Part shown: piece by piece, positions 1 through 56,746 of the stretch
How positions within the stretch are numbered: the stretch's first letter is position 1
Layout: each line of letters begins with the position of its first letter
Source of the DNA: an uncultured Gammaproteobacteria bacterium
Lineage (GTDB): Bacteria > Patescibacteriota > Patescibacteriia > Magasanikbacterales > JBBTXJ01
NCBI GenBank assembly: GCA_964610305.1
Contig: CAZSVL010000001.1
Coordinates: 108,781 to 172,780, forward strand
DNA: 64,000 nt
Direction of reading: 5' to 3'
Made by a program: the position numbers and the translations under genes
The notes under the pieces: generated by a model
Databases searched by the model: none
The model's input: only the letters and a program-made list of their open reading frames with translations
Told to the model about the DNA's origin: nothing

Positions 1-7
1 CTATAAT

Positions 8-1435
8 ATGGCCATGGCAACACTCGCCAGAAATACGGCCTTTATGACGGTAGCGGCAGTTGGGCAAAAGATCCTCTCTTTTGCCTATTTTACTTTTTTA
101 GCCCGTATGCTGGGCGCAGAGCTTACGGGAAAGTATTTTTTAGCATTATCATTTACTACTGTATTTGCTGTCCTTACGGATGCGGGATTAGCGCCCGCGC
201 TCTCAAGAGAGGTGGCTCGCAGCGCGGCAAAAGCACGTAGTTATCTGGCTACCATTTTAGGCCTCAAGGGCTTTTTTATGATTGGGGCATATGTGCTGGT
301 CGTAACTTCAGCTAATCTTTTGGGGTACCAAGCTGACACAAAGCAGCTTATATATCTCTCTGGTCTTACCATGTTGTTTGATTCTATCCATTTAAGCTTT
401 TATGCCACGCTAAGAGGCAAACAGATACTTAAATACGAATCTGTTGGAATGGTAGGAAGCCAACTGCTTACCCTATTAATAGGTACTGCCGCACTACTTA
501 CCGGAGCGCATTTACTGTGGCTCATAGCCGCCTTTACCATTGCAAGCGCCCTCAATGTGCTCTACAGCTTTACTATGCTTCAGAGAGAGGGTGTAGAGGT
601 GTCAGTTCGGTGGGATTGGGAATTAGGAAGAAAGATGTTGCTAATTGCGCTACCCTTTGGCTTGGCCGGAATATTCACACGTGTCTATTCCTTTGCGGAT
701 ACCATAATGCTTTCTAAACTCATGGATGAGGTGGCGGTTGGATGGTATAGCATTCCAAATAAAATTAGTTTTGCGTTTCAATTTTTGCCGCTAGCGCTCG
801 TAGCAGGTCTCTACCCACGCATTTCCGAGGCTTTTATAAAGGAAAAAAAGAAAGTAAGCAAACTTTTTGAGGACGCTGTTAGATATCTTGTTGTTTTAGT
901 TGTTCCTATCTCTGTAGGCATTGGAGTGCTTGCTAACGATATCATATACACGCTCTATACAGCAGAATATGATGCCTCTATTCTTCCACTCCAGATACTT
1001 TTGGCCAGTCTGGTGTTTGCTTTTTTGGGGTATCCTGTTGGAGCTGTGCTCAATGGTTGTAACAAGCAATCAACACAGACAAGTATTATGGGTTTGGCTA
1101 TGATTATTAATGTGTTGGGTAATTTTGTCATGATTCCTCAGTGGGGAGTAACCGGAGCTGCAATAGCTGCCTTTGTTGGAAACGCCGTTTTGTTTTTTGG
1201 TGGGTACTTTTTTTTGCACACAGTCACTACCGTGAGACATGACGTCTTGTGGCTTATAATTGGAAAAGGAGCTATCAGTGGGGCAGTAATGGGCGCTCTT
1301 GTTTGGTATGCACTGCATTATATGTCTTGGCCACTTACCATACCCCTGGGAGCCGTGGTATACTTAGTGTGTATTTTTTCACTTAAATTGGTGCAAAGAG
1401 AGGATCTTGCGCATCTAAAAAACAGATTTGGTTAA
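8..1435 (+). CDS. PST/MOP-family polysaccharide flippase (Wzx-like) polytopic membrane protein
   Basis: 475-aa ORF with many hydrophobic segments; N-terminal region resembles Polysacc_synt/Wzx flippases; first gene of a glycosyltransferase cluster; the ATG at 8 may not be the true start if the gene extends upstream. Confidence 0.75.
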   Translation: MAMATLARNTAFMTVAAVGQKILSFAYFTFLARMLGAELTGKYFLALSFTTVFAVLTDAGLAPALSREVARSAAKARSYLATILGLKGFFMIGAYVLVVTSANLLGYQADTKQLIYLSGLTMLFDSIHLSFYATLRGKQILKYESVGMVGSQLLTLLIGTAALLTGAHLLWLIAAFTIASALNVLYSFTMLQREGVEVSVRWDWELGRKMLLIALPFGLAGIFTRVYSFADTIMLSKLMDEVAVGWYSIPNKISFAFQFLPLALVAGLYPRISEAFIKEKKKVSKLFEDAVRYLVVLVVPISVGIGVLANDIIYTLYTAEYDASILPLQILLASLVFAFLGYPVGAVLNGCNKQSTQTSIMGLAMIINVLGNFVMIPQWGVTGAAIAAFVGNAVLFFGGYFFLHTVTTVRHDVLWLIIGKGAISGAVMGALVWYALHYMSWPLTIPLGAVVYLVCIFSLKLVQREDLAHLKNRFG

Positions 1436-10237: not shown

Positions 10238-12892
10238 TGCGGTTCTATTTTCTGTCTTTGTTTTGATGCTCGTTGCAATTCTGAGTTTATCATCTGCTAC
10301 AGATACAAGTACATTGTCTCCTTCGGAGATGGTGCCCTCAATGAGCTGCAAAGCAAGAGGGTCTAGTAGTTCATGCTGGATTACGCGCTTGAGCGGGCGC
10401 GCTCCATATTTTTCATCATAACCTTTTGCTGCCAGCCATTTCTTGGCAGGAGGTGTAAGTTCAATAATTATTTTTTTCTCCGCAAGCCTTTTTGCCACCA
10501 AATCTAGCTGAAGCTGCGCAATGGAGCCAATGTGCTCTTCTTTAAGAGCGTGGAAGGTAATAATTTCATCAACGCGGTTGAGGAATTCAGGTTTAAAGTG
10601 ATCTCTGAGGGCATCAGTGACTTTTTCCTTGATTCTTTCGTCTGCTGAATCGCCATTATCCTGGCCAAAACCAAGACCGCTTCCAGAGCTCACCAGCGCG
10701 TCTGACCCAATGTTAGACGTCATTATGATAACCGCGTTTTTAAAGTTTACCGTGCGCCCCTTGGCATCGGTAAGACGGCCATCGTCAAGAATTTGCAAAA
10801 GCATGTTAAATACGTCTGGATGGGCCTTTTCAATCTCATCAAACAAAATCACGGCGTAGGGCCTGCGCCTAATTATCTCAGTGAGTTGTCCACCCTCTTC
10901 ATAGCCAATGTATCCGGGAGGGGAGCCTATCATTTTGGAAATGGCGTGTTTCTCCATGTACTCTGACATATCCACGCGTACCAATGATTGTTCATCATTA
11001 AACATAAACTCAGCAAGCGCTTTTGCTAGCTCTGTTTTTCCAACGCCGGTTGGTCCCATAAAAATAAAGGATCCAATGGGTCTGTCTGGTTCTCCTACGC
11101 CCGCGCGCGATCTGCGGATAGCATTTGCGATGGCGGCTATGGGTTCTTTTTGTCCGATTACTCTCTTTTGGAGTTCTTGCTCTAAGCGCGTCAGTTTGTG
11201 TGCCTCGTCTTCAAGCATTCTGCTGATGGGTATTCCGGTCCACCGGCTTACCACTGCGGCAATGTCTTGCTCGGTCACCTCTTCTTTTAGGATTTTTCTG
11301 CCTTTTTGAATCTCTGCAAGTTTTTTTTGCGCTTCTCTGACAGCCTCCTGCGCAGCTGGAATTTTTCCGTATCTAATTTCAGCTACTTTCTGAAGATTTC
11401 CCTGACGCTCTGCAATTTCTGCTCCTTGTTTGTATCCATCTATCTTTTTTTGATATTCACGCAAAGAACCAATAATTTCTTTTTCATTTTTCCAATGGAG
11501 TTCCCACTCTTTTGTGTTTTCGGTGATTTCTGCCAGCTCTTTCTCTAAGTTTGAAAGGCGCTCCTTTGAGTCATCATCCTTTTCTTTTTTTAATGCCTGT
11601 TTCTCGATCTCTAGCTTAATTTGCTTGCGTTTCAGTTTATCTAGCTCTGCTGGCATAGAGTCTATCTCCATTCTTAGAGCTGATGTTGCTTCATCCACAA
11701 GATCTACTGCCTTATCTGGCAAGAAGCGATCAGAGATGTAGCGGTTTGATAGTTCTGCTGCAGCAATGATGGCGTGATCCGTAATGCGTACACCGTGGTG
11801 AACTTCATACTTTTCCTTGATACCGCGCAATATGGCAATAGTGTCATCCAAATCTGGCTCGGACACAAGCACTGGCTGGAAACGGCGCTCTAGCGCTGCG
11901 TCTTTTTCAATGTATTTCTGGTATTCCTTAAGCGTAGTTGCCCCAATAGCGCGCAGCTCTCCACGAGCAAGAGCAGGTTTTAACATATTACTGGCGTCAA
12001 TGGCGCCTTCGCTGCCTCCAGCTCCTACAATAGTATGAAGCTCATCAATAAATAAAACAAAACTGCCTTGCGCCTGTTTAATTTCCTTAATTACGGCTTT
12101 GAGCCGCTCCTCAAATTCACCTCTAAATTTTGTTCCTGCCACAAGTGAGCCAATATCTAGTGAGATCACTTCTTTGTCTTTGAGCGATTCGGGAACATCG
12201 CCATCTGCAATACGCTGGGCAAGCCCTTCAATAATAGCTGTCTTACCAACGCCGGGTTCTCCAATGAGAACGGGGTTGTTTTTTGTTCTGCGAGAGAGTA
12301 CCTGCATGACGCGTCTTATCTCATCATCTCTTCCAATTACAGGGTCTAGCTTTTCCTCTCGTGCTTGCGCGGTTAAATTAACGCTATATTTTTCAAGAGC
12401 GTTGTAGCGTGCCTCTGGTTCAGGGGAGTCTACCGTTTGAGTTCCACGTACCGTAGCTAGTACTTTAAGTACTTCATCAAAGGCAATATTGTGTTGTTTA
12501 AAAATTTGAGCGATGGTGGACTTGGATCTTAAAAGACCCATAAGTAGGTGTTCGGTGCTGATATATTTGTCTCCAAGTCTTTTGCTCTCTTGCGCGGCAA
12601 AGTTAAGAACGTGGGCCATGTCGTGACTCATGTAGATTTGTCCAATGCCGGTTCCGCCGCTCACGCCAGTGTGCTTAGGCAGCTTATCAATAAGCTCCTG
12701 CATATGTGTCTTCAGTAGGGTGGTGTCGGCATTGAGTTTGTTGAGCACAGAAATAACAACGCCATCTTCTTGTTCAAGGAGTGCAAAAAGCAAATGCGGG
12801 GGGTCAATTTGTGGTTGGCCGTTTTCTTGAGCCAATAAGTGCGCTCTCTGGATTGCCTCCTGAGATTTTGTTGTAAAATTATTGGGGTTCAT
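10235..12892 (-). CDS. clpB: ATP-dependent chaperone ClpB (AAA+ disaggregase)
   Basis: 885 aa; Clp N-domain, two Walker A sites ([16 protein letters not shown]), coiled-coil middle domain. Confidence 0.95.
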
Positions 12893-12894
12893 AC

Positions 12895-12921
12895 TTAGCA
12901 GTCTAGCAGTTTGATTGCTAA
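12895..12921. promoter_or_regulatory. CIRCE-like inverted repeat (TTAGCA-N15-TGCTAA) in the clpB leader
   Basis: ttagca (12895-12900) and tgctaa (12916-12921) are perfect inverted hexamers with the 15-nt spacing of the HrcA operator consensus TTAGCACTC-N9-GAGTGCTAA; inner triplets do not match; overlaps a minus-strand TTGACA-18-TAGACT promoter-like sequence. Confidence 0.35.
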
Positions 12922-12957
12922 TTTGTCAAGATGTGTAAAAAAAGGTAAAAATGAGGT

Positions 12958-13701
12958 ATGCAAATAGCCGGAGTACAGCTCAGACCAATGCCCAGGCCGC
13001 AAAGCTGCGAGGCGCTCAGAAGAGCACTTGTAGGCACAGGGCAAAACGTAGTTGTTACCGTGAATCCAGAGATGATAGTTCAGGCATCTAAGGATAGCTT
13101 GTTTAGATCCATCATTCATAGAGCTCATCTTCATCTTGTGGATGGCGCTGGTCTTGTTTTTGTCTCAAGACTAAAGGGTTTCAGAGGAGTTGAGCGATTT
13201 ACCGGTGTGGATGCGGTAGATTATGTATGTTCTGTTGCCAGTGATATGCAAAAGCGGGTATTTCTGTTGGGGACAGGGAGCACGTCAATACTGCTGAGCG
13301 CTGCTAACCATTTGCGTAGTAAATATCCCTCTCTTATTATATGTGGAATGCATGCGGCAACCAAAATGCAGGAATTTCCTGATGGCGTTGTTGTTTCTGA
13401 TGAGGGCAAACATGATGATCTGATCAATACCATAAATAAAGCTCAGCCCGACGTACTATTTGTTGCTTTAGGCCATGGAAAGCAAGAGAAGTGGATACAT
13501 CAATTCAGAGGCAGGATACCAAGCGTGAAATTGTTTATGGGTGTGGGTGGAGCGCTTGATTTTATGGGTGGAGCGGTAAAAAGGGCGCCAGAGCTTATGC
13601 AGAAATGGGGTCTTGAATGGCTTTTTCGTCTTATTGTAGAGCCAAGGCGGTGGCGTCGGATATGGCGCGCCACTATAGTTTTTTTATGGAAAGCAAAGTA
13701 A
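12958..13701 (+). CDS. WecB/TagA/CpsF-family glycosyltransferase
   Basis: VTVNPEMIV, GAGLVF, MGVGGALDF, EWLFRL motifs of the WecG/TagA family. Confidence 0.85.
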   Translation: MQIAGVQLRPMPRPQSCEALRRALVGTGQNVVVTVNPEMIVQASKDSLFRSIIHRAHLHLVDGAGLVFVSRLKGFRGVERFTGVDAVDYVCSVASDMQKRVFLLGTGSTSILLSAANHLRSKYPSLIICGMHAATKMQEFPDGVVVSDEGKHDDLINTINKAQPDVLFVALGHGKQEKWIHQFRGRIPSVKLFMGVGGALDFMGGAVKRAPELMQKWGLEWLFRLIVEPRRWRRIWRATIVFLWKAK

Positions 13702-26211: not shown

Positions 26212-26379
26212 GCTGTAGGCTGTAGGCTTTATGCTGTATGCCCTTTTAGCGTCATGCTGAATTTAATTCAGCATCCAGTTAGGAAACTAAGACTTACTCA
26301 ATTTTTACCCTAGATTCTGAATCAAGTTCAGGATGACATGTCGATACCTTACAGTATAAAGCCTACAGCCTACAGCATC
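26212..26379. repeat. composite palindromic element: 29-31-nt outer inverted repeats flanking an 87-nt GTCATGCTGAA...TTCAGGATGAC hairpin unit (MITE/REP-like)
   Basis: left arm gctgtaggctgtaggctttatgctgtatgcc (26212-26242) is the reverse complement of acagtataaagcctacagcctacagcatc (26351-26379); inner unit 26251-26337 with internal palindromes gctgaatttaattcagc and ctgaatcaagttcag; a related copy lies at 40169-40340. Confidence 0.7.
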
Positions 26380-36260: not shown

Positions 36261-37367
36261 TCAAGAAACAAAGCGTCTTTGGACTCTGTTGCCAAAGCTG
36301 CAGATGACGTCATACGGATGCGTGCCTTTTTTACGCGCCCATTGTGCTACACGCAGCTCATTGTCTAGTAGCACTACTTCATCACCTACCTCAGCCTGTG
36401 GTACATCATCAAGCAGAACCGTTGTGTAATCCATGCTAATGCGTCCTATCATGGGGCATTTTATTCCGTGCACTGTAGCCTGCCCGTTGTTGGTTAGCGC
36501 AAAGGGTATTCCATCTGCATAACCGGCGGCTATGGTGCCTACGGTGCATGGTTTTTGCAGTGTGTACATTTTTCCGTAGCCAATACTGCTTCCCGCGGGC
36601 AGTTTTCTTACGGCAACAAGTTTTGATTTTAGTGTCATGGCCGGAAGCAGATTGTAGGCTCGGTTTCCTTCTATGTCAAAAATGCCGTATAGGTTTATTC
36701 CTGTACGGACTCCGGTAAATGGGTGACTATAGCTCTCCGGGATATTATTTATAGCGTCAGAGCTGCCTATGTGGATATTTTTAAAAGTTATTCCCCTACT
36801 CCTAAGCTTTGACAGAAGATTTGTAAAAGTTTCTATCTGAGAGATGGTAAATTCTCTATCTCCGTAAGCGTGGGGAAAATGAGAATATATGCCGGCTATA
36901 TTTAATTTTGGAAGCGAGCAGATTTCTTCAATTACCGATACAATATGGCCACCCGTCATTCCTAACCTTCCCATGCCAGTGTCTATAAGTAAGTGACAGG
37001 TAGCAGTTTTGCCTTGTTTGCGAGCCTCTAGACTCAAGCGGTATGCTGTGCGGCGATCCCCAATAGGCGCTACAATATCATGTTGTATTACTGCAGGGAT
37101 TTCCTCTTCTAAAAGTGTGCCTACAATATGGGGCTTTAGACCAGCTTTTTTTATCCACAAGGCTTCCCGAAGATCCGCAAGTCCCACCGATGTTGCTCCT
37201 GCATGAGCAAGTGTCTTGGCTATCATTTGGGGCTCACCAAGGCCGTAGGCATTAGCTTTAAGAACTGGCATTACCTCTAGTGGACTTACTTTTTCTTTGA
37301 TTGTCCTAAAATTGTGAGCTATGGCGCTCAGTTTTATTTCTAGCCATACGCGCGCATAATTTTGCAT
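36261..37367 (-). CDS. alr: alanine racemase
   Basis: PLP-lysine motif VLKANAYGLG, GRISMDY and the second catalytic-Tyr region. Confidence 0.9.
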   Translation of the reverse strand: MQNYARVWLEIKLSAIAHNFRTIKEKVSPLEVMPVLKANAYGLGEPQMIAKTLAHAGATSVGLADLREALWIKKAGLKPHIVGTLLEEEIPAVIQHDIVAPIGDRRTAYRLSLEARKQGKTATCHLLIDTGMGRLGMTGGHIVSVIEEICSLPKLNIAGIYSHFPHAYGDREFTISQIETFTNLLSKLRSRGITFKNIHIGSSDAINNIPESYSHPFTGVRTGINLYGIFDIEGNRAYNLLPAMTLKSKLVAVRKLPAGSSIGYGKMYTLQKPCTVGTIAAGYADGIPFALTNNGQATVHGIKCPMIGRISMDYTTVLLDDVPQAEVGDEVVLLDNELRVAQWARKKGTHPYDVICSFGNRVQRRFVS

Positions 37368-37392
37368 AGATTGGATGGTATCACTTTCTACA

Positions 37393-37792
37393 AATAAAAA
37401 AAATGCCCCCGCTGCGTTACAAGAAGGCAGCGAGGGCGGTGTAGGTGCGCGTTTACGCCTTTGTTGGGGATAAGGCTCCCCTTGGCCGTAGTGATTGGGT
37501 GGATCAGGCGCGCTGTGAGCGCATTATCCTCCGCTTTCGCGCTATGAGGAACCCTTTGGGGTGATCAGCCCAGACTAATACCGCAAGGCGGTGTTTTCTC
37601 ATTAGTCCTCAATACCTTTTGATCAGTCTCTCCTTGCCTCTCGGCTTTCCCTATTATATGGGTGCTGGCGTCCCAGCTGTGGTCTATCCCCTGCGTTCGT
37701 TTTTTTTGGCGTTAGGCCTGCAAGTGGAGCTCCCGGGGATAAAAGGAAGCATGCCGCCTGCCTCGCGAAAAGAGCAGCCATGGCTCATTCCG
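37393..37792 (-). ncRNA. candidate structured RNA, unit B (about 400 nt, GC-rich), own promoter and terminator, immediately upstream of alr
   Basis: minus-strand promoter 37800-37828, intrinsic terminator hairpin gcccccgctgc/gcagcgagggc with T-run (plus coordinates 37393-37437), no long ORF, about 57% GC; shares a conserved core with unit A, with compensatory changes. Confidence 0.5.
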
Positions 37793-37799
37793 TTAACAC

Positions 37800-37828
37800 A
37801 GTATAGCACAAAATACGCATTTTGTCAA
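37800..37828 (-). promoter_or_regulatory. minus-strand sigma70 promoter TTGACA-17-TATACT with TGTGC extension
   Basis: the plus-strand motifs tgtcaa (37823-37828) and agtata (37800-37805), 17 nt apart, give TTGACA-N17-TATACT on the minus strand. Confidence 0.6.
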
Positions 37829-37884
37829 GGGGTAGATTGACAAAATACGCTTATTTTAGCCAATTTTAGGGTCTTATTTTGAGT

Positions 37885-38164
37885 AAAAAAAGGACCCCGC
37901 GAGCATCTACCGTTAAGTAGTGCCACGGGGTCGAGGAAGCTATGAGCAGGTTGGGAGCGCCAGGCGCGTTATTCCTCCACAGCATTTTCAGCCGTATTAG
38001 AGGAGTCCCTTTAGGGGGATCAGCCCAGAGCACAGCCACAAAGTGGTGTTTTTCAGTGCTCTCCTTACTCACGATTACGGTCTCTCCTTGTTGCCCCTAA
38101 GAATTTATCGGGGTCGTGGATGGTGGTCCTGCCAGGGCAGACGTTGAATGGTATTAAAGAATCG
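37885..38164 (-). ncRNA. candidate structured RNA, unit A (about 280 nt), paralogue of unit B
   Basis: minus-strand promoter 38171-38199; terminator hairpin gaccccgtg...cgcggggtc plus T-run (plus coordinates 37885-37932); conserved blocks ...GAAAAACACC-hairpin-CUGGGCUGAUC.CCC.AAAGGG...GGAGGAUAAYGCGC-loop-GCGC shared with unit B. Confidence 0.5.
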
Positions 38165-38170
38165 GATTAA

Positions 38171-38199
38171 AGTATAGCAGAAAAAACGTATTTTGTCAA
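38171..38199 (-). promoter_or_regulatory. minus-strand sigma70 promoter TTGACA-17-TATACT with TGC extension
   Basis: plus-strand agtata 38171-38176 and tgtcaa 38194-38199, spacer 17. Confidence 0.6.
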
Positions 38200-38226
38200 G
38201 TGGTCTTTGACACGTGTTCTTTTTTT

Positions 38227-38299
38227 GTCATCCTGAACCGAAGGTGAAGGATCTCCTGCCGCGCGATGGTATGAGATCCTTCACTGCGTTCAGGATGAC
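38227..38299. repeat. MITE/REP-like hairpin element GTCATCCTGAAC...GTTCAGGATGAC
   Basis: 12-nt perfect terminal inverted repeats (38227-38238 and 38288-38299) enclosing a second inverted repeat gtgaaggatctc/gagatccttcac; same termini as the elements at 26251-26337 and 40212-40296. Confidence 0.65.
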
Positions 38300-38351
38300 G
38301 CTTATGGGTTTTGTCAATTAAAAAACCCAGATGGTTAGTCCGGGAGAATTT

Positions 38352-39113
38352 TTACAGGGGCTCAATCTTGCCGTTGAGCCTGATAATTCCCATATCAATA
38401 ACGGGAATATTTTGATTTTCTGCTTGCTCCACAAAGGCGCGTGCATCGCGCTGGTGGATCTGCAGCTCCTGCTGAGGATCTGCATGAAGCCCCGGCTCGT
38501 AAGCATCACAGTCTTCATGTTGAAACAGTCTTACACCCAAGCCGCGCTCCGCAGCCCAAGCAAAGAACTGCCGACCAGCCTCTGTTCCAACAAGCGCCTT
38601 TGCAGCGCCCGGGACAACAAAGCTGTATGAGTCTGGGTTACGGTACTCAGTTCTGATCATTTCAAAAGGCGTGCGGTAGTCGCAGCAGCATACCGTCACG
38701 GTATTCCAATCATCAGGTGGGCTGCTCTCTGGGTTTCCTTCTCTTACAAAAAGGTTATGAGACAAGCTGGTACGGCGATCATCCTTTCTAAGCAAATCAA
38801 TAATGACAGATGCTGCTTCAATACATGCCAGGCCATCATCGTCAATGAGCGTAACGTGCGTGGGATTATGCAAGGTAAGAAGTGTGGTAATAAAACCAAG
38901 CATTTCTTTGGTGAGCGCATCATTTTCCGCACCGTTGATCACCGCAATAGGTCGCGGGATCCGCAGCACATCGGCCTTTCCTTCTTCTAGATACCTTTCA
39001 ATCACCCGGTTTGCCTGCGGATGAGATGGAGCAATGATTAAACGAGCAATGGACGTTTCTGTCACGCTTCCCTCCTCTGGTGAGCGGCGCGGCGTAGTAT
39101 ACGCATTTGTCAT
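38352..39113 (-). CDS. hypothetical protein (weak LmbE/PIG-L-like resemblance)
   Basis: 253-aa ORF; SHPQAN and HNPTH segments faintly recall the HPDDE/HxDH motifs of LmbE-like deacetylases but are not conserved; CCCDYR and HEDCD cysteine-containing segments. Confidence 0.45.
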   Translation of the reverse strand: MTNAYTTPRRSPEEGSVTETSIARLIIAPSHPQANRVIERYLEEGKADVLRIPRPIAVINGAENDALTKEMLGFITTLLTLHNPTHVTLIDDDGLACIEAASVIIDLLRKDDRRTSLSHNLFVREGNPESSPPDDWNTVTVCCCDYRTPFEMIRTEYRNPDSYSFVVPGAAKALVGTEAGRQFFAWAAERGLGVRLFQHEDCDAYEPGLHADPQQELQIHQRDARAFVEQAENQNIPVIDMGIIRLNGKIEPL

Positions 39114-39174: not shown

Positions 39175-39203
39175 TTGACAAAAAGGCTTTTTTGTGCTAT
39201 AGT
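39175..39203 (+). promoter_or_regulatory. sigma70 promoter TTGACA-17-TATAGT with TGTGC extension
   Basis: ttgaca 39175-39180, spacer 17, tatagt 39198-39203; SD aaaggagg 39211-39218; ATG 39225. Confidence 0.65.
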
Positions 39204-40173: not shown

Positions 40174-40340
40174 TAGGCATCAGGCCTCAGGCATTAGTGA
40201 GGTGTCCACTTGTCATACTGAACTTGATTCAGAAACTATGAAGAAACAAAGTACGTCTTGCTGTTATAGTGGATCCTGAATCAAGTTCAGGATGACGCTA
40301 ACTGGGTACTAGTGCCTACTGCCTGATGCCTAATGCCTAT
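40169..40340. repeat. composite palindromic element filling the atpD-atpC intergenic region (outer inverted repeats plus 85-nt GTCATACTGAAC...GTTCAGGATGAC unit)
   Basis: outer arms ggcattaggcatcaggcctcaggcattag (40169-40197) and ctagtgcctactgcctgatgcctaatgcc (about 40309-40338); inner unit 40212-40296 shares the 21-nt ctgaatcaagttcaggatgac with 26317-26337. Confidence 0.7.
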
Positions 40341-55050: not shown

Positions 55051-55338
55051 CTACTCCTCTGGCCAGATTTGATTGCCCTTTGCGTCATAAACAATGATAG
55101 CGTTGGTGGGGCAGCTTTGGGCTGCAAGCAGGAGTGTCTCGTCGTCATGAGCATCTGGGTCAACCAAAAAAGCTAGATTTTCATCGTCTAGTTGGAAGGT
55201 TCCCGGCGCTACGGCAATACAAGAGGCCGCACCTATGCAGGCATCTCTATCTATTACCACCTTTCTATATTCCTTATCCTCAGAGCGTGTGCCCGTTTCA
55301 ATATCTCCCTCCCTTTCTACATTTTTTTGTTCAGACAT
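55051..55338 (-). CDS. ferredoxin (single Cys-cluster, 3Fe-4S/4Fe-4S type)
   Basis: CIGAASC...CP cluster-binding motif in a 95-aa acidic protein. Confidence 0.8.
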   Translation of the reverse strand: MSEQKNVEREGDIETGTRSEDKEYRKVVIDRDACIGAASCIAVAPGTFQLDDENLAFLVDPDAHDDETLLLAAQSCPTNAIIVYDAKGNQIWPEE

Positions 55339-55443
55339 AGTGCCATTTTAGCATTGTAGTATAAAAAGAGCCACAGCAGCTTTTTTCATTTTTTTTGGTT
55401 TCTGAAATGTGGCTAATTTAAGCCAATTTTGTCAAGTTACCTC

Positions 55444-55472
55444 TTGACAAAATTGACAAAGTGTGCTATACT
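55444..55472 (+). promoter_or_regulatory. sigma70 promoter TTGACA-17-TATACT with TGTGC extension; 38-nt sequence duplicated at 57377-57414
   Basis: ttgaca 55444-55449, spacer 17, tatact 55467-55472; ctcttgacaaaattgacaaagtgtgctatactgctttt is identical at both sites. Confidence 0.65.
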
Positions 55473-55479
55473 GCTTTTG

Positions 55480-56162
55480 TTGCGTTAAGACAGTTCTGCG
55501 CCCACTTCTGTTTCTGTCTTTTGGGTAGTACGGAGCTTGTGCCGAAAAAGGCCCTTAGCGTAACGCTCTTTTTGAAAAGTGTTGGTTTTCCTGCCAGCGC
55601 GCAATGGAGGATGTAGTATGTCTGAAAGGCCCGATCTGCCGCCCGCCTTGTGGAGGCCCGCAGTATTGGAGTCCGTCAGGCCCAGGATCTCAATGGTGAT
55701 TGAGTGAACGGAGCACGGTTGTGGCTAGCGCCTGGCGCTAGGGTTGCTTGCCTCCACAAGCAGCACTTTCCATGTCTGTGGGAGGTTCAACTAGCTAGAA
55801 AGCTTGCAGGAATTCACCGTTTTCTGTGTATGGCCGGCATACTTGCTGACGCGGGGTGCGAGAGATCGCAGCCGAACCAAACCGCTCAGTTAGCGTGGCC
55901 ACGTAGTGGTCGGCTTGTAAAGCTTGTGAGGAGCTACTGATCCTCTGTGGTGATCCCATGGAGGAGCCCACAAGCTGGTATCCTATGAGAGGCTGAAGTG
56001 ATGCAGACCTCTACTCGCCTAACAGTGAGAGCCTTTGCAAGGGCCAGTACGACGCTCCCGCGGGGAGAGTACGTGCAAGGATATTACACAGAAACGTCAC
56101 AAGCGTGGTACTGCGCAGGTTCCACGTGGCCCTCGTCGACAACCGTTGACGAGGGCTTTTTT
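55480..56162 (+). ncRNA. candidate long GC-rich noncoding transcript (about 680 nt), promoter to terminator, no long ORF
   Basis: starts about 8 nt after the -10; ends at hairpin gccctcgtcgac/gttgacgagggc (56129-56156) plus T6; about 57% GC; long-range helix gccttgtggaggc (55645-55657) / gcctccacaagc (55750-55761); contains a 29-codon ORF with perfect SD at 55618-55707. Confidence 0.4.
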
Positions 56163-56164
56163 AA

Positions 56165-56746
56165 TTATAGTCCTAAAAAAAGATCGTCTCCCAATTCTAA
56201 ATCTTCAAATTCCCCTTTTGTGTAATCCCCTTCTGGGAGTTTGCGCGCCGCTTCTACTTTTGAAGCTGCCTCCGGGGGGATGACCTCTGAGATTATGTTT
56301 CCGTTAACGGCTATATTGTTTGCTACTTCACAATAGCCCAGGCAGCCTCTGTATTGCAGAGAGACTTCCTCACTTTCTTGCCCTTCTTTGATTCCAAAGT
56401 GATTTTCTAGCTCTTGCATAATATAGCGCGCATGCTTGGGGCCGCAGGTTTTGGAATCGCAGACTTCAATTCGATCTACCTTTTTGTCATCCCGGACTAG
56501 ATCCGGGATCTCAAGTGATGCGTCTACCGACGATTTTTTACTTGAGATCCCGGATAATTCACTATGTGAATTTCCGGGATGACAGGTGGAGGGTTGTGAA
56601 TTTCCGGGATGACAGATTGGTTTGTTTTGTCCGCATGTGCAGTTTTCGCATTTTGACGGGATCCCTCGGCTCTCCTGCGGATCGCTCGGGGTGACGGGTG
56701 GGTTACCCATAGTATTTTTCGCTATAAAATCTAATGAGTTGCTCAA
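56165..56746 (-). CDS. thioredoxin-like [2Fe-2S] ferredoxin (NuoE-like); N-terminal region of uncertain reality
   Basis: C-terminal CDSKTCG ... GCLGYCE (C-x4-C ... C-x3-C); the N-terminal about 90 codons translate the CCGGGATGACAG repeat elements and overlap the upstream NifU gene by 44 nt, so the true start is probably internal. Confidence 0.65.
   Translation of the reverse strand: MSNSLDFIAKNTMGNPPVTPSDPQESRGIPSKCENCTCGQNKPICHPGNSQPSTCHPGNSHSELSGISSKKSSVDASLEIPDLVRDDKKVDRIEVCDSKTCGPKHARYIMQELENHFGIKEGQESEEVSLQYRGCLGYCEVANNIAVNGNIISEVIPPEAASKVEAARKLPEGDYTKGEFEDLELGDDLFLGL
56486..56615. repeat. GTCATCCCGGAC...TTCCGGGATGACAG hairpin element with tandemly duplicated right end, embedded in the 5' part of the 2Fe-2S ferredoxin ORF
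   Basis: termini gtcatcccgga (56486-56496) and tccgggatgac (56573-56583); inner inverted repeat ccgggatctcaagt/acttgagatcccgg; second copy of gtgaatttccgggatgacag at 56596-56615. Confidence 0.65.

Follow-up and report, generated by a model that had tools for sequence, protein, structure and literature searches.

The 984-nt gap between a gene for a 237-aa hypothetical protein and the alanine racemase gene alr, both on the minus strand of the 64-kb stretch of uncultured bacterial DNA that was analysed here in its entirety (the window), poses the question of what it specifies, be it protein, a regulatory leader for alr, RNAs in their own right or nothing of function. Our analysis shows that the gap contains two predicted transcription units, A and B, which are tandem paralogues of one another, have no conserved coding potential and share a common fold. 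Judged from their sequences they are a real, lineage-restricted and not previously described family of structured small RNAs that belongs to no described family, and the reading we favour, to which we assign a probability of roughly one half, is that they are free-standing RNAs acting through a conserved helical junction.

The signals from which we infer that each unit is transcribed separately can be recognised at both ends (Table 1). A first-pass annotation of this DNA had described for each unit a TTGACA-17-TATACT promoter with a TG preceding the -10 box, together with an intrinsic terminator; both promoters are present as described and both terminators can be read directly in the sequence. 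The same annotation had overestimated the GC content of the two RNAs at about 57%, for which we measured 52.7% (unit A) and 54.5% (unit B) against 44.8% for the window. The start codon of alr (ATG at 37367) lies approximately 28 nt beyond the last T of the unit B terminator run, and the previously given distance of 27 nt holds when counted from the terminator end that had been placed at 37393. Folding of the full-length units gave z-scores of -2.4 (A) and -1.9 (B).

Units A and B have in common a core of approximately 130-145 nt and their similarity is far above that of shuffled sequences (Smith-Waterman z-score of 15), with nhmmer E-values in the region of 1e-7 (7e-7 and 2e-7). The two units agree fully over the string CAAGGAGAGAC and at 78% of positions over a 46-nt block. 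The earlier proposal, of a tandem pair of paralogous non-coding units that each possess a promoter and a terminator, is upheld.

The only homologue retrieved is a single B-type unit that stands before alr in a syntenic metagenome contig (L001), in which the same promoter and terminator are kept and the alr product is 70% identical. The gene order in L001 is atpGDC, a small gene on the opposite strand, the 237-aa gene, one B-type unit, alr, an addA-like gene, DciA, hisS and mreB. In order to gauge constraint on the RNA we compared it with the neighbouring gene. The core is 83% identical between unit B and L001 (150-column alignment), and the alr genes of the two species, 70% identical as protein, agree at 76% and 82% of first and second codon positions and at 41% of third positions; four-fold-type sites are 38% identical, which is near saturation. 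Outside the core the RNA is poorly conserved, with 34% identity in the 5' half and 38% in the terminator region, and despite this 38% the L001 terminator is a perfect hairpin of differing sequence followed by a U-tract. The contrast between 83% in the core and 41% at alr third positions demonstrates, at the level of sequence comparison, purifying selection on a defined RNA core and on the structure of the terminator, and it rules out decaying junk.

These comparisons also bear on the idea that the gap is either non-functional DNA decaying after the insertion of alr or the site of small protein genes. The region is specific to the alr-carrying clade and does contain short open reading frames (ORFs), namely a 68-aa GTG ORF at 37866-38072 and a 32-aa ATG ORF at 37504-37602, with KH..WADxPKG encoded in one frame common to both units. 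This protein-like frame was rejected since in L001 it lacks a start codon and is interrupted by a stop, and when all six frames were compared among A, B and the L001 orthologue none proved open or conserved throughout the three, which bears out the earlier statement that the gap holds no credible ORF. A core that persists while synonymous sites approach saturation, and a promoter and terminator retained in both species, speak against decay as well as against coding, and we regard this explanation as very improbable and largely refuted. The units thus have the attributes of independent small-RNA genes, with a promoter and terminator of their own (as in L001), no conserved ORF and conservation above the neutral level.

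When folded separately the three cores adopt the same architecture, with z-scores of -2.9 (A), -2.8 (B) and -4.0 (L001). It consists of a hairpin, P1, immediately 5' of GGGCUGAUC, followed by a four-way junction with the consensus GGG-CUGAUC-[ACCC..GGGU]-[UCCUC..GAGGA]-UAAU-[GCGC..GCGC]-..-CCC, in which P0 (GGG/CCC) closes the junction, P2 is ACCC-NNNN-GGGU, P3 (UCCUC/GAGGA) is capped by a variable P3b and a UAAU-like linker joins P3 to P4 (GCGC-loop-GCGC). A further hairpin, H5 (GGGA-GCCUUA-UCCC), lies between junction and terminator in unit B and L001 and is missing from unit A.

In P1, P1b, P3b, H5 and the terminators the sequence differs and the pairing is retained. P1 reads AGAGCAC/GUGCUCU in A, GGACUAAU/AUUAGUCU in B and GGAUuGAUGC/GCAUCuAUCC in L001; the inner hairpin P1b is CCAC/GUGG in A and CCGC/GCGG in B, an A-U pair standing in A where B has G-C, and is absent from L001; P3b is ACGGC/GCUGU, CGC/GCG and GCAG/CUGC respectively; and the closing pair of H5 is G-C in B and C-G in L001. 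The earlier claim of compensatory changes thus holds for inner hairpin and outer stem. A third claimed instance, GCGC-CUG-GCGC versus GCGC-UCACA-GCGC, is not covariation, as the stem is identical and the loop alone differs. When a covariance model was built without unit A, on B and L001 alone, it recovered A with 47.8 bits (E = 2e-9) and placed P1, P1b, P2 and P4 in register. In the alignment of the three sequences 94% of cells are paired, and 10 pairs have changed on both sides in comparison with 3.9 +/- 1.5 after shuffling (none of 500 shuffles reached 10) and 0-3 in slid controls. The proposal of a common fold held through compensatory changes is supported by both the like folding of the three cores and these 10 doubly changed pairs, with the covariation, from three sequences of two species, being suggestive and not statistically solid.

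The units had previously resisted assignment to transfer-messenger RNA (tmRNA), RNase P, 6S, signal recognition particle (SRP) RNA or T-box elements, and this result now extends to the whole of Rfam. A search with the 4227 models of Rfam 15 at their gathering thresholds gave no match anywhere in the window and assigned no known family. Relaxing the cut-off to E <= 10 for the region 37250-38400 returned only sub-threshold matches (10.5-20.7 bits, where gathering thresholds are 39-88) to microRNA, small RNA (sRNA) and long non-coding RNA models, and these coincide with hairpins, the terminator and adjoining DNA. In the same region and at the same cut-off there was no match to the RNase P, 6S and SRP RNA models, the universal motifs of which are also absent by eye, to the T-box model, for which no terminator-competing segment was found either, or to the glycine riboswitch (RF00504). 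The likeness of CAAGGAGAGAC to the GGAGAG box of the latter was dismissed as a short string only. ARAGORN found neither a transfer RNA nor a tmRNA in the window. A CsrA-type sponge was also considered and rejected, GGA motifs numbering 6 in A and 10 in B where 3.8 and 7.5 are expected, which is not an enrichment.

The short blocks that are identical in A and B while the adjacent stems diverge raise the possibility of trans-acting sRNAs that base-pair with messenger RNAs (mRNAs), with the single-stranded blocks CAAGGAGAGAC and GAAAACACC, common to both units, as seeds, in the manner of the PrrF1/PrrF2 or OmrA/OmrB pairs. Adjacent paralogues each equipped with a promoter, an operator-like palindrome and a terminator would suit such a role. 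Neither CAAGGAGAGAC nor GAAAACACC is conserved in L001, however, whereas the structured junction is, and a length of 280-400 nt with an elaborate fold would be atypical, such that we consider this an improbable explanation.

The host had been taken to be a member of the Patescibacteria, or Candidate Phyla Radiation (CPR), and AtpD, encoded 2 kb away, agrees with this in being 80-88% identical to proteins of Ca. Magasanikbacteria, Uhrbacteria and 'Patescibacteria group'. The alr gene is an outlier in this background: its best named relatives are in the Lentisphaerota, at approximately 52% identity, and closer CPR relatives lack alr at this position despite atp-to-addA synteny, from which it is probably a lateral acquisition in this sub-clade. 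The contigs L096 (AtpD 88% identical) and L097/L098 (85%) have the same atp-to-addA neighbourhood but no alr, and a covariance-model search found no A/B-type RNA there. More distant alr loci have no upstream gap and no such RNA before the gene.

Two of the related contigs carry other RNA-like sequences. In L096 a GC-rich putative RNA with a -10 box and a terminator (12762-12995, plus strand; fold z-score -2.4) lies just before addA, and in L004, the alr of which is 66% identical, a terminated GC-rich RNA (1-212, plus strand; fold z-score -1.4), its start at or beyond the contig end, precedes alr. Both were rejected as homologues of A and B since they have no significant similarity to A, B, L001 or each other. 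Rfam had no match in the L001 or L004 sequences and none in the L096 RNA.

Wider searches did not enlarge the family. A scan of 185,579 species-representative genomes with the pattern GGGCTGATCNCCCNNNNGGGN{2,3}CCTC gave 60 matches, none of them from Patescibacteria or other relatives and nearly all from high-GC lineages, which we take to be chance. Strict pattern scans gave 0 matches in Joint Genome Institute (JGI) metagenomes and 0 in viral contigs. The relaxed JGI metagenome pattern GGGCTGATCN{25,50}GGAGGAN{1,2}AAYGCGC gave 23 matches, mostly on GC-rich contigs and chance-like, in which nhmmer detected no similarity to A, B or L001 except for one weak match at E = 0.11. Neither nhmmer nor the covariance model detected additional copies when applied to the window and 11 other loci; the one match at E = 0.011 lies inside a TatD gene and is spurious. 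The extent of the family is thus three copies in two species.

A and B have a promoter architecture in common with one other locus. Within the window an inverted TGTCAA-N7/8-TTGACAAAA element is confined to three promoters, those of A, B and a further unit, C, against 0 occurrences expected by chance. The operator-like palindrome ATTTTGTCAA-N8-TTGACAAAAT overlaps the -35 box, and B and C have in common a 43-nt upstream element that includes a further conserved stretch, GGCTAAWWTAAGC. Unit C (54.7% GC) is a candidate large structured RNA by its fold z-score of -3.9 (20 shuffles); it contains no ORF longer than 82 aa, has no Rfam match and has no sequence similarity to A or B. Its orientation, convergent with the gene that follows, excludes a role as a leader. 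By analogy, A, B and C may be a small set of co-regulated stand-alone RNA genes. The likeness of the A and B promoters is in part a general trait of the host genome, a third close match to them at 39175-39203 (plus strand) driving a protein gene. Divergent from unit C there is a Cys-rich ferredoxin-like ORF of about 95 aa (approximately 55060-55345, minus strand) with TATACT shortly before its ATG, which falls below the 120-aa cut-off of the ORF list.

Table 1 Features of units A, B and C and of the adjacent alr gene, in coordinates of the window
Feature	Position	Strand	Description
Unit A promoter	38171..38212	minus	TGTCAA-N7-TTGACA (-35)-17 nt-TGcTATACT (-10)
Unit A -35/-10 span	38199-38171	minus	TTGACA-17-TATACT, TG before -10
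Unit A palindrome site	38191-38212	minus	at promoter
Unit A transcript	37885..38165	minus	~281 nt; start inferred from -10 position, end from terminator
Unit A core	37933..38062	minus	P1, P1b and four-way junction
Unit A P1	38062-38056 with 38033-27	minus	
Unit A four-way junction	38026-37953	minus	P0 GGG/CCC, P2 CCC/GGG, P3 UCCUC/GAGGA, P4 GCGC/GCGC
Unit A intrinsic terminator	37885..37932	minus	long GC-rich stem (37932-37893), then 7 U
Unit B promoter and upstream element	37800..37861	minus	GGCTAAAATAAGCGTATTTTGTCAA-N8-TTGACAAAAT...TGcTATACT
Unit B -35/-10 span	37828-37800	minus	TTGACA-17-TATACT, TG before -10
Unit B palindrome site	37819-37861	minus	at promoter
Unit B transcript	37393..37794	minus	~402 nt; predicted ends
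Unit B core	37463..37608	minus	P1, P1b, four-way junction and H5
Unit B P1	37608-01 with 37579-72	minus	
Unit B four-way junction	37571-37497	minus	same architecture as A
Unit B H5	37481-37466	minus	GGGGA-GCCUUA-UCCCC
Unit B intrinsic terminator	37396..37437	minus	11-bp stem (37437-37405), then 8 U (37403-37396)
Candidate leaderless-type alr promoter	37365..37383	minus	TG-a-TACCAT, 7 nt, ATG (37367-65)
alr	36261..37367	minus	alanine racemase, 368 aa; adjacent gene
Unit C	55411..56165	plus	transcript ~55479-56165, ~690 nt
Unit C palindrome site	55411-55453	plus	at promoter
Unit C promoter	55444-55472	plus	TTGACA-17-TGcTATACT
Unit C terminator	56128-56157	plus	

The first-pass annotation had offered two roles for unit B, a cis-acting attenuating leader of alr or a standalone sRNA. 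As a leader, whether a riboswitch or a protein- or RNA-dependent attenuator, B would use its junction to sense for example a cell-wall precursor or an amino acid and so gate read-through of the terminator, with A being a duplicate in series or independent. B is indeed placed directly before alr on the same strand in both species with no consensus promoter between them; the close CPR relatives without alr at this position are also without the RNA, which would fit a joint arrival or joint evolution of RNA and gene. Aptamers, moreover, typically combine, as do these RNAs, a compact and unvarying junction of several helices with peripheral stems that vary, and the conserved structured domain generally expected of a riboswitch is present, with 83% identity and the same fold in three sequences.

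The other general expectation, a terminator and an antiterminator pairing that exclude one another, was not borne out. A search for duplexes between 5' segments and the terminator arms gave nothing above shuffled sequences (p = 0.09-0.44), and by manual inspection no alternative terminator pairing is conserved between B and L001. The geometry is also unfavourable to a leader, in that 75-90 nt and the extra conserved hairpin separate the junction from the terminator and 150-210 poorly conserved nt lie 5' of the junction, while unit A, with the same core, is followed by the unit B promoter rather than by a gene.

With regard to a 5' untranslated region, B immediately precedes alr in two species, yet alr has a -10-type box of its own of the kind expected for a leaderless mRNA. 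The box TGaTACCAT and its 7-nt spacing from the start codon are identical in L001 and are the best-conserved stretch of the spacer. Among the 46 ORF starts of the window Shine-Dalgarno sequences are nearly absent, and TAnnnT boxes peak 6 nt upstream of start codons, where 9 ORFs have one as against approximately 1 at other offsets, which suggests that leaderless mRNAs are widespread in this CPR genome. The alr of L004 has its own TTGTTT-17-TATACT promoter after the unrelated terminated RNA, the more distant alr loci do without such a leader, the promoter element of B is common to the free-standing unit C, and our literature search turned up no alr-associated riboswitch. The proposal of an attenuating leader is thus weakened by the alr box, by the lack of a competing pairing, by unit A having no gene to lead and by the promoter held in common with C, and we see it as possible but unlikely. 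Its more specific form, in which B (and ancestrally A) would represent a riboswitch or attenuator class not described before that senses L-Ala, D-Ala, D-Ala-D-Ala or a related precursor and gates alr transcription, we hold to be more doubtful than either the leader in general or the seed-pairing sRNAs; if this were true, Patescibacteria would have their first regulatory RNA of assigned role and riboswitches their first alanine-family representative.

As A lies before the promoter of B, the promoter element is common to C, C is not a leader and alr has a box of its own, free-standing RNAs are favoured, and of the two roles offered for B the standalone one is probably correct. A and B would accordingly be separately transcribed paralogous genes for one type of structured non-coding RNA confined to a narrow lineage, with each RNA made from a strong sigma-70-type promoter and ending at its own intrinsic terminator. 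The functional part would be the invariant four-way junction, with the preceding P1 free in sequence provided that it remains paired, and the RNA may act in trans through a protein or some other partner in the cell that binds the junction. Both units could be regulated together with C by way of the promoter palindrome. The strong terminator of unit B would insulate alr, which would be expressed chiefly from an extended -10 promoter of its own, giving a leaderless mRNA, with a possible contribution of read-through.

Several points weigh against this interpretation. The RNA is seen only where alr is present, directly upstream and on the same strand in both species, and the placement of B before alr would look the same for a cis-regulator. 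The alr -10 box has 4 of 6 consensus positions and no -35 box. The left half of the palindrome is conserved only in part in L001. The alignment underlying the covariation comprises three sequences from two species and was fitted to the model, and the helices P0, P2, P3 and P4 are invariant, so that they fit the proposed fold and neither support nor contradict it.

The surroundings of the two units have some further features. The 237-aa protein upstream of the RNAs (38352-39065, minus strand) has no Pfam match, even at E <= 1, and a word-based search of 5.8 billion proteins found one relative only, which is 68% identical; the contigs that carry this relative stop before the position of the RNAs. 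A further contig, P0126, likewise stops right after atpD. L096 has a 238-aa gene in the equivalent position. Between the terminator of the 237-aa gene and unit A, at 38227-38299, there is a dispersed palindrome (GTCATCCTGAAC ... GTTCAGGATGAC, forming a hairpin of about 73 nt) resembling repetitive extragenic palindromic (REP) elements, further copies of which are found at 40212-40296 and 26326-26337. Two contigs from a related species, L069 and L070, break at an element (GTCATGCTGAAC..) that resembles it.

Patescibacteria have tiny genomes with few recognisable regulators. In the literature we searched there was no characterised patescibacterial non-coding RNA beyond the universal ones, and nothing specific on an alr riboswitch or on non-coding RNAs of CPR or Lentisphaerae. 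In the window approximately 1.4 kb is given to three structured, unclassified RNAs with predicted strong promoters and a common operator-like palindrome, which hints at an RNA-based regulon in this lineage. Should the family prove broader, or should B control alr, it would offer a concrete way into how genes are regulated, and how a horizontally acquired cell-wall gene is integrated, in bacteria that cannot yet be grown alone. At present its value is that of a well-supported, narrowly distributed candidate family and a seed for covariance-model searches, rather than the discovery of a mechanism.

Among known systems, riboswitches that terminate transcription, tandem arrangements among them (reviewed in PMC9481103), resemble this locus in having a structured domain followed by a terminator just upstream of a metabolic gene, with two related domains in series. 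The locus differs in that A and B are each preceded by a promoter, a switching helix was looked for and not found, no ORF is directly regulated by the upstream unit, alr appears to possess a start signal of its own and no known riboswitch model matches. Tandem paralogous sRNA genes are represented by PrrF1/PrrF2 of Pseudomonas and OmrA/OmrB of E. coli, RNAs of approximately 80-150 nt that act by a linear seed with Hfq. Like these, A and B are same-strand neighbours and paralogues that diverge outside the functional part, and each has a promoter, a regulator-type palindrome at or next to its -35 box and an intrinsic terminator; unlike them, A and B are 280-400 nt long, it is a folded four-way junction that is conserved across species, and there is no relation by sequence or Rfam family. 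The raiA motif and OLE are orphan structured non-coding RNAs that were found by comparative genomics (PMC10861870, PMC11109978). Such classes are widespread, their members number from hundreds into the thousands and their covariation has statistical support. A and B are known from three copies in two species and match none of those Rfam models, but they have in common with the raiA motif and OLE a GC-rich, non-coding multi-helix RNA, a place in a long intergenic region where the genome around it is richer in AT, conservation above background and a function that cannot be read from context. By analogy, therefore, the layout of the locus looks closest to the tandem pairs PrrF1/2 and OmrA/B, while in its molecular character the RNA seems nearer to the orphan structured RNAs.

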